A stretch of DNA of 63,147 bases, filler included, from Craspedostauros australis (Eukaryota): NCBI GenBank assembly GCA_030167865.1. It is 5 parts of 5 records of this genome, joined end to end, with 100 filler letters (N's around TTAATTAATTAA, not from the genome) between each part and the next. Parts side by side here need not be neighbours in the genome. Positions count along the whole stretch, not along the records: positions 36,329 to 63,147 come from JALAGF010004218.1; 4 more parts are not named here. One strand, 5' to 3'. Both the position numbers and the translations under genes were made by a program. Under the pieces are notes generated by a model. It saw only the letters and a program-made list of their open reading frames with translations. It was not told the origin of the DNA and did not search any database. Below are positions 45,228-51,466 of this stretch, in pieces; positions within the stretch are counted from its first letter, which is position 1, and each line of letters opens with the position of its first letter.

Positions 45228-46160
45228 ATGACAATGACAATGACAATGACAATGACAACGGCAACTTCATCAGCGACAGCAACCACGATGATGCATCTGT
45301 ACGCACGGATGCTAACAGCCATCGTCAGCTTCATCGCCATCACGAGATCCAATGCATTGAGCGCCAATTCCCTGCTCGCCAACACGCGCTGGAACGTCAA
45401 ACTCGATGTGGGTCTCCAGCCTGGCACATGGATGCCCAAACGTTACCCCGGCTGGGCCGAATCGGGTGCCCGGCTGGGCTTGGATCTCGACATCCAATTC
45501 ACGGATGTGCCATCGCGCGAAAGCGAGATTCTCGTGGGGCCCTCGCAGCTCACGTACGAATTGGACGTCGTCACGCCGACGTGCACCTTCGTGTCGGAAC
45601 GCGGACAAGAGGCCGTGACGTTCGGCGGCGGCGGGTGGTGCATCCAGCGTCCCAATGGCGACGTGCGCAATGAGAATGGAGCCGCGGTGTGTCCCGAAGG
45701 GTTGCTGCGGTTTTGGTTGGATTGCAAGACGGGAGCGAAGCGAAGGGATGTGGAGATTCTTCCCAACACGAGGATATTTTTCACGACGGGTGTGTGGGAT
45801 CGACCCGGCGATGTGGCTGTGCAGAAGGACCAGTATCAGGAGACGGTGACGGAGATGGAGAACTTCATGGAGCGGACGCGGAGCAGCCGGTCGCGGAGGG
45901 AGAATCAGAGCGTCATGGAGCGGATACTGTCCCTGCCCAAGCAGGTGGACGAATCCAAGCAGCTGGAATTACTCATGTCCAAGAAGATGCGACTTGAGCG
46001 AGAGATGCCACCGCCGCAGTCACCGCAGGCATCGAACGGTGTGCAGATCGCATCGACGGGATCGTTGGTGATCAAGGGAAAGGAATCGGCTGGTTGGTTG
46101 CCTGGCTCCGAGTACCTCATCTTGGGCACATTCTCCACTGCCGCTAGAACCAAATGGTGA
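45228..46160 (+). CDS. Hypothetical protein, possibly plastid-targeted (alternative start 45288)
   Basis: Coding-like codon usage. Signal peptide ending SNA-LSA, a globular segment (WNVKLDVGLQPGTWMP..WAESGARL) and a coiled-coil insert. An (ATGACA)5 repeat sits at the start. Confidence 0.75.
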   Translation: MTMTMTMTMTTATSSATATTMMHLYARMLTAIVSFIAITRSNALSANSLLANTRWNVKLDVGLQPGTWMPKRYPGWAESGARLGLDLDIQFTDVPSRESEILVGPSQLTYELDVVTPTCTFVSERGQEAVTFGGGGWCIQRPNGDVRNENGAAVCPEGLLRFWLDCKTGAKRRDVEILPNTRIFFTTGVWDRPGDVAVQKDQYQETVTEMENFMERTRSSRSRRENQSVMERILSLPKQVDESKQLELLMSKKMRLEREMPPPQSPQASNGVQIASTGSLVIKGKESAGWLPGSEYLILGTFSTAARTKW

Positions 46161-46427
46161 CATTCAAGTGGTAACATCCGCAGGGCGCAACACACTTCCA
46201 GTACAGTTGAGTACGGATAGTGTGGGCCGTCAATGTACCCAAGCCCAAGCAGCTCCGCGCAACAATGAATCTGAAAGGCAACCTAGCGACGACGACAACG
46301 CCTGCTGAGAAATGAACTCCACGCAATGTATGGGCACATACCATACAGATAGTGCAATAGAGGATCATGCAATGCAATGATTCTGCAATCTCTAAAATAA
46401 AATCGCGGGTGGCTGCCTCTGAACCTA

Positions 46428-49396
46428 CTATCGCTGTCGCTTGGCGTTCTTGACACCCTTGTCCTTCCTCGTCACCATGTGGGAATTCTTGGATCCACCG
46501 AAGTTCTTCTTGGGCTTGGTCAAGGTTTCCAAATCGACGATGGGGGCGGCACCGATACGATCCACGCCGCTCACATGCCGTGCTTCGATCTTCTCCTTCA
46601 CGTACTTGCTGTGGTCCAGGTAGAACTTGTAATCACCCTGGTACTTGGTCAATTTCTTTTCTTCGATTGCGACGATTGTCGTGGCGACCTTGGAGATGAA
46701 GTAACGGTCGTGCGAAACGATCATGACGGATCCTTCAAAGTACTGCAGAGCTTCCTCCAGCATCTCCTTGGCAGGGATGTCTGTAGGTGAGGGAGATGGA
46801 ATTGTCCAGGATTTTGGAGCCGAGTGTGAGACGAAATGGATGAGATGTGACGTCGCGTTGTTGGTGGCAGGCACAGCACGGAACATCGCAGTACGGAACA
46901 GTATCTACTGTATGGTGCACACACACCGCATCACAAAACACCCAGCAAGCAAGCAGGAGCAATCAACACACGTGTGCAAAACAACAGTTGCACAAGACGG
47001 GAACGTACCCAAATGATTCGTCGGCTCATCCAAGATGAGCAGGTTGGCTGGTCGCAGCATCATGCAGCACAAGGAGAGACGGGCCTTCTCTCCTCCGCTC
47101 AAGTTCTCCACCTTCTTGTCGACGGCGTCGCCCTTGAACAGGAATTGTCCCAGCAAGGCGCGCAGCTCGTTGTAGGATTGACCGTTGCTGGCGCCCTGGA
47201 TGGTATCCAAGACCGTCTTGTCCAAATCCAAGGCATCGGCCTGGTTCTGCTCGAAGTAGTTCATGACGACGTTGGCACCGATGAGCTTGGCCGAGCCGCT
47301 GTCGGGTTGCTCGCGACCGATGAGCAGGCGCAGCAGGGTGCTCTTGCCGGATCCGTTGGGGCCCAGGACGGCGATGCGGTCACCCTTTTCGATGAAGAGG
47401 TCGACGTTGTCGAAGAGGCGGTTCTGCGAAATCTCGTTGGCGTACGAATGCGACATTTGCTCCACTTCGGCGACCTCGGGGCTCAATCGCGGCGCGTCGG
47501 GGAAGCGGAATCTGAATGGCTTTCCGACGAAGGGTGGCTTCTTGACGTAGTCCTCGCTCTTGGTGAGCTTCTCGAGACGTTCCTTGCGCTGCTTGGCGGC
47601 CTGGGGTTGCTTGATCTTGAACTTGTTAATCCACTGCTTCTCGGCCTTGATCTTCTTCTCCTGCGCATCGTAGGCCGCCTGCCAGGAATCCATGCGTGAT
47701 TTCTTGAGCTGGAGGAAGCGGGAGTAGTTGCCGTCGTACTCTGTGCAAACTCCACCCTCGGCATCGACGATCTTGGTGCAAACCTGGTCCAAGAACTCAC
47801 GGTCGTGGCTGACGATGATCATTGGGATGTTCTGGCTGCGGAGGAAATTCTCCAGCCATTCCACGCTCTCCAAATCCAAGTGGTTGGTGGGTTCGTCTGT
47901 TGCGTTGTGAAGAAAAGGGATAGATGAGAAGTGCGATGATGATACAAAGCAGATTGAGTGAGAGGGCACGTGAATGAAGCAACTGCAGTTTTTGCGCTTG
48001 TGGGAGTGGAGATTTAAAACATGCCATTCCATCTCTGCGGACAGAACATTCAAAACTCGTTCTCTCATACCCAACAATAGACGAGCAATTGACGAGCGGT
48101 ACAGCCAGTGAACAGCACAATGAACAGCACAATGGATGGACCAACATAATCGACGAACTCACCCAGCAAGAGGACGTTGGGATCCTTGAGAAGGACCTTT
48201 CCAAGACCGATACGCATCTTCCAACCACCAGAAAAGCTTGCCACGAGATCGTCGGCCTCATCCTCGATGAATCCCATGACGTCCATAACCTTCGTGACGC
48301 GGCTTTCGAGGGCGAAGACGTCCTTATCCTCGGCCCGGTTCTGCAGCTCCTGCAGACGATCGAGGATGGTCTGCATACGCTCTGGATCCTCGGCATCCAT
48401 GGTCTCGAGGTCCTTCTCGGTCTGCTTGAGATCTGCCAGGATGGCATTCTCCTCTACGAAGACGCTCATGAACTCCTCCTTGAGCGTGCGCTCCGGCGTG
48501 AGCTCCTCGATGAATTCCTGACGCAGCATGGCGACGCGCAGATCCTGCGTCGATTTGACGACGTCGCCCGTGGTGGGTTCGAGCTCGCCGTTGAGGATGC
48601 GCAGCTGCGTCGTCTTGCCGGCACCGTTGGCACCGACGAGGCCGATGCGGTCGCCGGTCTGGACTCCCCATGTGACGTCGTTGAGGACGGCCTGATCGCG
48701 GAACGTGACGCCGATGTTCTCTAGACGCAAGGAGGTGTATCCGGGCTGGGAGCTCTCCATGACGCGGATGCGCGGTGGAGGACGCTCCTTGCGGATCTTA
48801 TCCTCCAGCGACAGCTTTTTGGGAGCGGCAGTGGTGGCGGCGGCCTCGCCGTTGGTGGCGGCACCGTTGGCAACGGCTCCCTCGGCCTCCTCCAGCTCCT
48901 GCTGTCGCTTTTGCTTCTTCTCGGCCTTGGCAGCAGCTTTCGCGGCCTCCTTCTCCTGCTTCTTCTTGAGCGCCTTGAGCTCCTTCTTGGAGAGCTTGGG
49001 CTCGTCCTCGCTGTCGTCCGATGATCCCGCTGCGGCCGCCATGTCCGCCTCTTCCATGGCCAACGCCTGCGCCAGCATCTTCTCCTTCTTGGACATGGGC
49101 TTGCCGGCAGACGCCTCCACGTTCTGCTCCTTCTTTTTCTGCTTCTCCAACGCCTTGAGCTCCTTCTTGGACAGCGGCACATCGGCATCTATCTCATCCA
49201 GGGCATCGAGGGCCTCCAACGCGGCGGCCTTGGCATTGGCGCCCTTCTTGGCAAGCAGCGCGGTGGTGCTTCGCGGCATCATCCACGACGACAGAGTCGT
49301 TGCAGTTGTTCTCTGCGGCAGGGACGTCCACGCGTGAGCGTGCGTCGCCAGCAGCAGCCATGGCAGCACCGTGCGGAATGAGCATCGCACTATCAT
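46428..49396 (-). CDS. ABC-F family ribosome-associated ATPase, plastid-targeted
   Basis: Two ABC domains (GANGAGKT / FSGGWKMR / LLLDEPTNHLD and GPNGSGKS / LSGGEKAR / LILDEPTNHLD) with a PtIM linker and no TM domain. Signal peptide ending AHA-W. Exons are 49396-48163, 47896-47009 and 46780-46428. Confidence 0.95.
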
Positions 49397-50164
49397 CGTG
49401 GCTTGTTGCTTGCTTCGGCTTCCTTTCTAATGCTTCTGCTTCTGTGAATGGCAGACTAGGGCGGAGTATTCGGTTTGCCCAACTCAACTCTGTCCAGCTC
49501 AGCTCAGGTATAGCAGGGGTGCGAGTGCGATCCGATGCAATGACTGTGATGCGGTTGCGCACTCCAGCAGGCTGTTTGTCGAATGACAGATGAGTCAAGT
49601 TGTGTCAGTGAAGTGCCCTCGTCTTCCTTCTTTCTTCTTGGGTCGAGAGCGCGGCTGTTGTACTCAGTTGGTGGCCTTCGTTGGGATGGATGCTTCAACT
49701 TGGCTCTCTCTTCATTCATCTCCTGCCGTCATCCCCAACCATTCTCGTCATCTCTCGTCATCTCTGTTGCAAACATCAGCCACGAGAACTTTTCGCTTCC
49801 TTCATTCTTTCGTCACATCAACAACCGTGAACGATGTTGGCAGCATCAACGTGTCATTTCTGCTTCGTTGGTTGTCAGACTCCTTTCGTTCTGAATTGAT
49901 TCATTTGATTGAATCTCATTGGATGGAATAGAGGAATCATGCCACACGATCGAGTTCATTCACGTTCCAACAGGACTGACGCACGACAAAAACAAAATCA
50001 AAGCGAAAAGGCCCATCACATTTCCCCTTGCGGCTATCTTTCCTCCATCCATCATTCCGTCCCGATGCAACGTCTCTGGCCATCGCATCTGATCCGATGA
50101 CATCCGATCACTTGGCACGTCCACACTCGTAGCACACTCGCAGCATAGCACACCCGCAACAACC
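49397..50164. promoter_or_regulatory. Probable bidirectional promoter between ABC-F and EF-P
   Basis: 768-nt spacer between two divergent ATGs. Promoter function is inferred from the gene arrangement only. Confidence 0.55.
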
Positions 50165-51115
50165 ATGTTCTCCATCCGCTCCCTCGTCGTCGCCTTCGCC
50201 GCCATCGCCGGCACAACATCGGCATTCGTGCCATCATCGCCCAACCACTTCGTCGCCCGCACACCGACGCATCTGCAGGTCGCCATCGACACGTCCGACA
50301 TCAAGAATGGATTGACGGTGGAGATCGATGGCGAGCCCTTCAAGGTCCTCAGCTTCAGCATCATGAAGCAGGCGCGTGGAGCGGCCAAGACCACCATCAA
50401 GTTCAAGAATCTCATGCGCGGCAATACCATCGAGAACACCTACCGCAGCGGGGAGAAGTTCCAGACGGCGCAGATCGATAAGATCGGACATATTTTTTCG
50501 TATGCGGATGAAGTGAGTTCCATTGTTTGGTCTTCTTTCTGTTTCTCGTGCTTCATTCTTCTTCTTCTTCTTCTTCTTCTTTGTTTCTTCTTCTGCGATT
50601 GTGTGTATAAGACTACTCGACAATACATAATAGCACGATATCAAATATGGCACAATACTATTATTGTATGGTGCAGTCCTCCATCCGTCTGTCTCGCTGT
50701 CCCATTGCTCCATTTCTCACAACCACACTCACTCATCGTCCACCGCCCACCGTCCAATTCATGAATCTGCAACTCACGCAAACAGAACAACTTCTCCTTC
50801 ATGAACGCGGAATCGTTCGAGGAAACCCTCGTGCCAATTTCCATCGTCGACGAAAGCGCCAAGTGGATCTCGGAGGGCATGGAGCTCAACCTCATCTTCT
50901 TCAATGACAAGTGCATCGAGGTCGTCGTGCCGCTATCCAACACCTACGAGATCACAGACACGGAACCAAACGTCAAGGGCAACACGGCGCAGGGATACAC
51001 CAAGCCAGCCACCTTGGACAGCGGCGCGATCATCTCAGTTCCAGGATACCTCGAGGCCGGCGACAAGATTCGAGTCGACACGGACAGAGGCGCCTTCTTG
51101 CAGCGTGCGGACTAA
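50165..51115 (+). CDS. efp: Translation elongation factor P (EF-P family), plastid-targeted
   Basis: Signal peptide ending TSA-FVP, then DIKNGLTVEIDGEPF, TYRSGEKF, FMNAESFEE and TEPNVKGNTA..TKPATLDSG..VP..GDKIRVDT. Exons are 50165-50512 and 50786-51115. Confidence 0.95.
50557..50594 (+). repeat. (CTT)n microsatellite in the EF-P intron
   Basis: Read directly from the sequence. Confidence 0.85.
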
Positions 51116-51466
51116 GCCAATGTATTCGCAGGGTAGAGCAGAGTACTCAAACACAGTGCTAAACCCGTTCGTCCGCCTTGCCACGCATCAGTTTCGATTC
51201 TTTTTGGTTACTTGTATTATGTATGCAACATCCTAACGTGATCACAGTGTTTTGGCTCATGATTAGTGTACACCGACTTCGCACGAACACCATGCAACAA
51301 ATCATCGACAGGATGCCTTGTCGTGTTCGCGCTTCCATCTTCTTCTTTCCCCATGTTGGTCTCCTGTCTGCTTGGTTTGGCCCATGTGCTGATAGCGATC
51401 CTGTATTCCCCGCCTTTCCTCTCTCCTTCATTCTCATTTATACCACCATCCATGACGTCGTCGCGG

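Follow-up and report, generated by a model that had tools for sequence, protein, structure and literature searches.

A head-to-head gene pair for a predicted plastid elongation factor P and a cpYdiF-type ABC-F ATPase recurs among diatoms

The presence of two genes for ribosome-acting factors side by side in the nuclear genome of Craspedostauros australis (assembly GCA_030167865.1), each with a plastid-type presequence, invites the question whether their adjacency is accidental or whether it reflects a common role on the plastid ribosome. One encodes an ATPase of the ABC-F family (minus strand, 49396-46428) and the other elongation factor P (EF-P; plus strand, 50165-51115), and both lie in a 63,147-nucleotide (nt) stretch of joined records that is referred to here as the window. 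In both the EF-P and the ABC-F family, action on the P-site tRNA is exerted from the E site of the ribosome. An earlier reading of the window, the original prediction, had described a divergent pair separated by 768 nt and had suggested that it may be a co-expressed anti-stalling unit, by reference to bacterial ABC-Fs of the Uup/YfmR type. The head-to-head layout, the ATG-to-ATG spacer of 768 nt (49397-50164) and the coordinates were all borne out by gene models, Pfam matches, transcript-like contigs and a public transcriptome protein. The pairing itself recurs in other diatoms, which argues that it is more than chance, and the ABC-F is best assigned to a different subfamily.

Conservation of the arrangement was assessed by scanning a metagenome collection with exon 2 of the ABC-F gene, and the 46 loci fetched were then searched with EF-P. 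Nine of these were informative, with 2 kb or more of DNA upstream of the conserved core of the ABC-F; in the remaining 37 this stretch measures at most 1.5 kb, too little for a judgement. In five of the nine, EF-P lies upstream on the opposite strand. Placed by the ABC-F tree, the five are L001 (spacer 507 nt), which falls with Amphora coffeaeformis, L011 (425 nt) in the pennate clade, L018 (725 nt), likewise in the pennate clade and among the Bacillariaceae, L023 (425 nt), a polar centric next to the Thalassiosirales, and L029 (403 nt), which is identical to Chaetoceros neogracile in the columns kept. With the window included, the start codons are 403-768 nt apart in all measured loci with the pair. 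By lineage, the head-to-head pair is present in five of six informative environmental diatom lineages, these being pennates and two polar-centric lineages. The sixth is represented by two loci of the same organism (L041 and L042, 99.8% identity); in this lineage the orthologous ABC-F gene contains a larger number of introns, and no other informative diatom lineage lacks the pair. The two remaining loci are L038, from a non-diatom sister clade, where no EF-P was found within 3.2 kb, and L044 (40% identity, placed in no tree), where a search for EF-P was also negative.

Linkage was also found in Nitzschia inconspicua, in which the ABC-F (KAG7352934) and EF-P (KAG7352936) on a 4.35-Mb contig are two accession numbers apart, as are KAG7366986 and KAG7366988 on the homeologous 5.38-Mb contig, so that the genes must lie close together, separated by one annotated model at most. 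The synteny that the original prediction had proposed to test thus held up both in five of the six environmental lineages and on both N. inconspicua contigs. In Thalassiosira sp. AJA248-18 a 5'-partial EF-P is on an 8.3-kb contig and a 615-amino acid (aa) ABC-F model starting at an internal Met is on a 5.1-kb contig; a break in the assembly between the two genes would give the same picture, and the case counts neither way.

The DNA surrounding the pair looks quite different from one lineage to the next. When the whole 63-kb window was compared with the pair loci by tblastx, 34-42 high-scoring segment pairs (HSPs) fell inside 46400-51200, and outside this interval there were only a few HSPs of 17-31 aa which we regarded as spurious. 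Comparison of locus with locus gave two weak flank-to-flank HSPs in 10 pairs, at 26-29% identity over 35-42 aa, and within the up to 5 kb of flank compared per side no flanking gene was common to any of the pair loci, whether the window was set against the loci or the loci against each other. The pair is an island of conserved gene order within otherwise reshuffled DNA. The split between pennates and polar centrics is well over 100 million years old, and little synteny has been found in published comparisons between model diatoms. The two genes show what defines a conserved divergent pair, namely head-to-head orientation and a short spacer kept across lineages independently of the flanks. In their orientation, sub-kilobase spacer and deep retention despite changing flanks they resemble other conserved divergent gene pairs of eukaryotes; they differ in that the partners are two nuclear-encoded, predicted organellar translation factors, at least the ABC-F coming from the cyanobacterial endosymbiont, and in that promoter sharing and co-expression are here presumed.

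Bacterial genomes offer no counterpart to this arrangement in the sample examined. An efp gene was present in none of 96 bacterial ABC-F loci (80 with 3-kb flanks and 16 from whole-genome searches), a two-cassette ABC-F gene was beside efp in none of 20 bacterial efp loci, and a search of two cyanobacterial genomes placed efp and the ABC-F gene on different contigs in each. As the genes are unlinked in the bacteria examined, the head-to-head pair was created in the nucleus rather than inherited as an operon. A separate observation concerns a Flavobacteriales metagenome-assembled genome (L148:3351-3971), where lpxA and efp flank, on one strand, the gene of a 206-aa single-cassette ABC ATPase. 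Among NCBIfam models this protein best matches the generic ABC-F model, over its N-terminal half and with 90 bits, which falls far short of the cut-off.

The identity of the ABC-F partner has a direct bearing on what the pair might do. Its exons match PF00005 twice, one match covering residues 238-411, and PF12848 once, and the model contains paired Walker A motifs (GANGAGKTT and GPNGSGKST), signatures (SGGW and LSGGE) and Walker B motifs (LLLDEPTNHLD and LILDEPTNHLD). The protein therefore has the complete family architecture, with two cassettes each bearing Walker A, signature and Walker B with the catalytic Glu, a PtIM linker and no membrane domain, and its closest solved relatives are the ribosome-bound YheS, EttA, YbiT and Uup.

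Among bacterial matches to the exon 2 region (80 loci kept), the best at 53, 52 and 50% identity are all cyanobacterial and other phyla reach at most 44%. Full-length diatom orthologues P0077 and P0128 were scored against NCBIfam models and fell below the equivalog cut-offs for EttA (405-414 bits against 599), Uup (359-360 against 900), YbiT (375-404 against 762) and YheS (343 against 917), the sole model passed being the generic ABC-F model NF000355 (419-430 against 380). In a maximum-likelihood tree of 29 rows, from which one truncated open reading frame (ORF) and one long-branch resistance-like Bacillus paralogue had been left out, the diatom ABC-Fs form a clade with three cyanobacterial proteins of 565-576 aa at 100/100 support. 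A separate 100/100 clade holds Uup and EttA of Citrobacter, a 631-aa Bacillus sp. protein and a second cyanobacterial paralogue of 640 aa, while YbiT forms a further separate clade. The diatom/cyanobacterial clade is sister to Uup/EttA at 50/72, a level of support that neither shows nor rejects this order of clades. On the strength of its position outside the Uup/EttA clade and the low scores of its orthologues against the Uup equivalog, the assignment of the paired protein to the Uup/YfmR type has to be given up.

When a cyanobacterial ABC-F was compared with the proteins of Bacillus sp. ISL-34, the best match was a 645-aa ORF at 442 bits and the other four paralogues reached at most 305 bits; from its length and these best-match scores we take the 645-aa ORF to be YdiF-like. 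According to Murina et al. (PMC6723617) the cpYdiF group holds the cyanobacterial sequences. Of the four diatoms shown in their supplement, P. tricornutum, T. pseudonana and P. multiseries have a single cpYdiF and Fragilariopsis cylindrus has two, with algUup, algEttA and algAF1 also present in diatoms. The window protein shares with cpYdiF the 100/100 grouping with cyanobacterial ABC-Fs and an N-terminal extension predicted to direct it to the plastid, and is on sequence grounds best described as a cpYdiF-type, cyanobacterium-derived ABC-F rather than as the Uup-like protein of diatoms. That paper, in the passages concerned, classifies proteins without regard to gene neighbourhood.

A further feature of the diatom protein is a charged, diatom-specific N-terminal extension ahead of the first cassette, encoded at 48752-49261 on the minus strand (about aa 46-215), in which three P(L/M)SKKE repeats occur and which includes 36 Lys or Arg, 32 Asp or Glu and 38 Ala among its 170 residues. 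Complete diatom orthologues number 88; ahead of the core they have a median of 242 aa, and two to four of the repeats occur in 78 of them. The cyanobacterial homologues have no charged extension and start directly at the cassette, and an extension of this kind (170-350 aa, with PLSKKE repeats) finds no mention in the passages of PMC6723617. It could be a ribosome- or RNA-binding tail.

The second partner is a bacterial-type elongation factor P by both domain and whole-protein measures. Its exons match PF08207, PF01132 and PF09285, that is, all three EF-P domains, and the public transcriptome protein P0001 (225 aa), which is letter-for-letter equal to the gene model, passes the NCBIfam efp equivalog TIGR00038, its residues 41-224 scoring 191.8 bits where 185.8 are required. 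Since the model aligns from residue 41, a presequence of 40 residues remains. The protein departs from bacterial EF-P at the tip of the domain I loop, where residues 67-74 (50363-50386) read MKQARGAA and the conserved Lys is absent, its place being taken by Arg71 (codon 50375-50377, plus strand) where bacterial EF-P has the Lys of KPGKG. The Lys of this loop is the usual site of EF-P modification. All 74 diatom EF-Ps examined have the MKQARGAA loop, and KPGKG is found in all 20 bacterial EF-Ps fetched, two cyanobacterial ones included, with none having Arg. Some proteobacteria possess an Arg-type EF-P that is rhamnosylated by EarP; like the KQARG of diatoms it has Arg in place of the loop-tip Lys, although the context of the loop differs. 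Bacterial EF-Ps from a genome scan were only 32-38% identical to the diatom protein, none exceeding this and none being closer than the cyanobacterial ones, so that these identities single out no source for the diatom EF-P.

Both proteins begin with what appears to be a bipartite plastid-type presequence, as the original prediction had proposed. The ASAFAP-type plastid presequence of diatoms consists of a signal peptide with F, W, Y or L at position +1 of the cleavage site and a transit-like stretch thereafter. The ABC-F starts with MIVRCSFRTVLPWLLLATHAHA/WTS (the slash marks the presumed cleavage site), giving the context AHA/W, and EF-P with MFSIRSLVVAFAAIAGTTSA/FVP, giving TSA/F. In each case a hydrophobic signal and a small residue precede an aromatic one, after which comes a stretch that is rich in Ser, Thr and Arg and contains no acidic residue. 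Corresponding sites in the related environmental loci are SSA/FAP, AAA/FAP and ASA/FAP for EF-P and VKA/FGL, STA/FTG, TEA/FVP, VDG/FTP and THA/FTQ for the ABC-F. A crude home-made heuristic, which looks for an uncharged hydrophobic window, a small residue, F, W or Y and then few acidic residues, recognised 64 of the 69 EF-P models that are complete, five more having been skipped because they were short or had no initial Met. For the ABC-F it recognised 67 of the 88 complete models, with 57 more skipped, and most failures are models that start inside the protein. Both proteins should therefore be imported into the plastid and are predicted to reside in the stroma. Recurrent database models of the ABC-F, such as P0139, P0186 and similar entries of 615-616 aa, take as their first residue an internal Met (MES[SA]QP...) that lies shortly ahead of the first cassette; having neither presequence nor charged extension, they are probably truncated predictions.

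Published work in bacteria connects EF-P with more than one ABC-F. Passages of three sources (PMC10895253, PMC11381351 and PMC13602936) describe a synthetic growth defect of YfmR/Uup with EF-P and the relief of polyproline stalls by Uup in vitro. That system, too, comprises two E-site factors that act on the P-site tRNA, in its case with a genetic interaction that is strong, and differs from the diatom pair in that the ABC-F is of another subfamily, the setting is not organellar and the passages describe no conserved gene adjacency. For YdiF, an ABC-F that is also outside the Uup clade, a genetic link to EF-P has been demonstrated in Bacillus subtilis: an efp mutant regains swarming through loss of ydiF function, as seen with five independent mutations (in a passage of PMC6613710), and in passages of PMC11381351 overexpression of YdiF worsens the efp yfmR double mutant and YdiF adds nothing to stall resolution in reporter assays. 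Unlike the situation in diatoms the B. subtilis genes are not reported as neighbours in these passages, and the link is antagonistic. Both sets of results tie ABC-Fs to EF-P, and in the subfamily of the paired protein the tie has the look of antagonism or competition at the E site, not of back-up. The original prediction is supported in part, as regards the reality of both genes, their plastid-type presequences and the synteny. Its functional argument, which leaned on YfmR/Uup-like buffering, is not supported, the published link of B. subtilis YdiF with efp being antagonistic (PMC6613710 and PMC11381351, in the same passages).

Considering gene order and sequence together, we lean slightly towards a reading in which the 0.4-0.8 kb spacer would be a bidirectional promoter holding the ratio of two plastid E-site factors constant. 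The imported EF-P and the cpYdiF-type ABC-F would engage the P-site tRNA from the E site of plastid ribosomes, one bidirectional promoter region within the spacer would drive both genes, and selection would keep the spacer intact as this fixes the ratio of two factors competing for one site on plastid 70S ribosomes. The two proteins would be expected to occupy that site by turns and not to bind one another. A shared promoter, co-expression and functional coupling of the pair are what we infer from the arrangement. More tentatively, the pair could have been wired under one bidirectional promoter since before the split of pennates and polar centrics, with the ABC-F as an obligate partner or antagonist of EF-P and the ratio under selection; the substitution of Arg for Lys in the EF-P loop may have co-evolved with the coupling, as may the charged PLSKKE-repeat extension of the ABC-F.

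A number of observations weigh against a coupled pair of plastid factors. In the diatom lineage sister to Odontella (L041/L042) a search at permissive thresholds over 9.3 kb of upstream and 9.6 kb of downstream sequence around the ABC-F gene gave no EF-P, and since this lineage keeps the ABC-F without an adjoining EF-P the pairing must be dispensable. No k-mer of 7-10 nt is common to four or five of the six spacers beyond what is seen in shuffles, and structural reasons alone can conserve short head-to-head spacers. The one accession number between the N. inconspicua genes means that a gene model may intervene there, and the lineages in which the pair was seen are pennates and two polar centrics. 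Targeting was judged from sequence by the home-made heuristic, the cpYdiF label leans on the statement about cyanobacterial sequences in the passages of PMC6723617, and the deeper relation of the diatom ABC-F to the Bacillus YdiF-like proteins is not settled by the trees.

Some of these points are equally what would be seen if the pair were retained passively, a breakpoint in so short a spacer destroying one of two interleaved promoters and the common theme of plastid translation being coincidental. Spacers of only 403-768 nt, the lack of any conserved motif found among the six of them and the loss of the pair in one diatom lineage that still has the ABC-F fit such an explanation, and cis-regulatory constraint is documented in a passage of PMC3514665 as a keeper of microsynteny in animals. 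We nevertheless consider it unlikely, though the main rival, given that both partners come from the small set of E-site factors of bacterial-type ribosomes, that both have plastid presequences and that published work connects efp genetically with ABC-F genes. Less probable still is the specific proposal of the original prediction, that a Uup/YfmR-like ABC-F relieves proline stalls redundantly with EF-P and that the pair forms an anti-stalling rescue module. The synthetic defect and polyproline relief mentioned above (passages of PMC11381351, PMC13602936 and PMC10895253) speak for it, as does the weakly supported sister relation (50/72) of the diatom/cyanobacterial clade to Uup/EttA. It has to contend with the position of the diatom ABC-F outside the 100/100 Uup/EttA clade, a score of 359 bits against a Uup cut-off of 900, the separate algUup that diatoms possess (a passage of PMC6723617) and the finding that YdiF brings no gain in stall resolution and on overexpression worsens the efp yfmR mutant (passages of PMC11381351). 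The idea that the two genes came to lie together by chance in a single compact genome has nothing in its favour beyond prior expectation, diatom genomes being gene-dense, and deserves hardly any credence when the same arrangement occurs in five environmental lineages amid unrelated flanks and the genes are linked on two N. inconspicua contigs.

Both protein families are known, as are conserved divergent gene pairs; what is new is the present pair and its implication for YdiF-type ABC-Fs. We found no published description of a plastid EF-P/ABC-F pair in the literature, where a mention in supplementary material is possible, and in a 2026 review of polyproline factors (PMC13602936) the words chloroplast and plastid are absent. 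YdiF-type ABC-Fs are widespread and the sole functional handle on them is the antagonistic genetic interaction with efp in B. subtilis. Retention of the pair from raphid pennates to Chaetoceros amid changed neighbours would be independent evidence that both proteins act on the same problem and, should the favoured reading of a ratio fixed by a shared promoter be true, the first evolutionary evidence for the function of a YdiF-type ABC-F that is independent of bacterial genetics. Diatoms can be transformed and edited and would thereby offer a tractable eukaryotic system in which to study YdiF-type ABC-Fs and EF-P. The pair may also point to unexplored translation control in secondary plastids, one example being an EF-P loop with Arg in place of the modified Lys. 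If conservation is only structural, what is left is a tidy but ordinary conserved bidirectional pair.

The gene models on which these comparisons rest were examined against P0001 and against contigs of a public run (X1), the RNA origin of which is a guess and from which expression levels are not measurable. The ABC-F gene has three exons and an 824-aa product. Exon 1 (48163-49396, minus strand) encodes aa 1-411 plus one base by gene model and Pfam, and contains the signal peptide, the transit-like stretch, the Lys/Glu/Ala-rich extension and most of nucleotide-binding domain 1. Intron 1 (47897-48162, 266 nt, GT..AG, phase 1) is bridged by no X1 contig and was placed by sequence logic, its removal restoring LLLDEPTNHLD as the Walker B motif of domain 1. 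Exon 2 (47009-47896) runs from the end of domain 1 through the PtIM linker (PF12848) into domain 2 as far as its Walker B motif, and is 74-86% identical to 120 diatom proteins among the matches listed. After intron 2 (46781-47008, 228 nt, GT..AG, phase 1) exon 3 with the stop codon (46428-46780) encodes a basic C-terminal tail and is covered by an X1 contig over 46368-46780; an X1 contig joins 46780 to 47009. The stretch 47325-50103, comprising the 5' two thirds of the ABC-F gene and most of the spacer, is covered by no X1 contig, which has no bearing on expression.

The EF-P gene has two exons and a 225-aa product. Exon 1 (50165-50512, plus strand) encodes the presequence (about aa 1-40) and the KOW-like domain I, and exon 2 with the stop codon (50786-51115) encodes the OB domain II and C-terminal domain III with 100% identity to P0001. 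They are separated by an intron of 273 nt (50513-50785, GT..AG), across which an X1 contig joins 50512 to 50786, and an X1 contig extending over 50104-51177 runs from 61 nt 5' of the EF-P ATG through to 62 nt beyond the stop codon. Splicing is thus seen for two of the three introns of the pair, X1 contigs skipping exactly 46781-47008 and 50513-50785. The EF-P intron also contains a CTT trinucleotide repeat at 50546-50597. Within the 768-nt region between the start codons (49397-50164), presumed to be the bidirectional promoter region, two ORFs at 49583-49894 and 49590-49931 had no Pfam match.

A genome titled Bacillus subtilis subsp. subtilis strain SK7B5 (G001) was dropped as a reference for the ABC-F comparison on account of an EttA equivalog and over-extended open frames, and Bacillus sp. 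ISL-34 was used instead. Loci L130, L132 and L136 of G001 include the EttA equivalog (968 bits) and a YheS-like protein, neither of which is reported from B. subtilis: PMC11381351 lists VmlR, YdiF, YfmM, YfmR and YkpA as its ABC-Fs and gives it no EttA. The G001 assembly probably contains foreign contigs.

Neighbouring genes in the window are unrelated to translation and encode a protein with no Pfam match, a DUF1275 protein and a Pro/Thr-rich protein of secreted appearance. The plus-strand gene beside the ABC-F gene (coding sequence 45228-46160) has a transcript contig that ends at 46320 and the ABC-F transcript contig begins at 46368, so that the convergent transcripts of these two genes appear to end about 50 nt apart, as judged by contig ends rather than mapped poly(A) sites.

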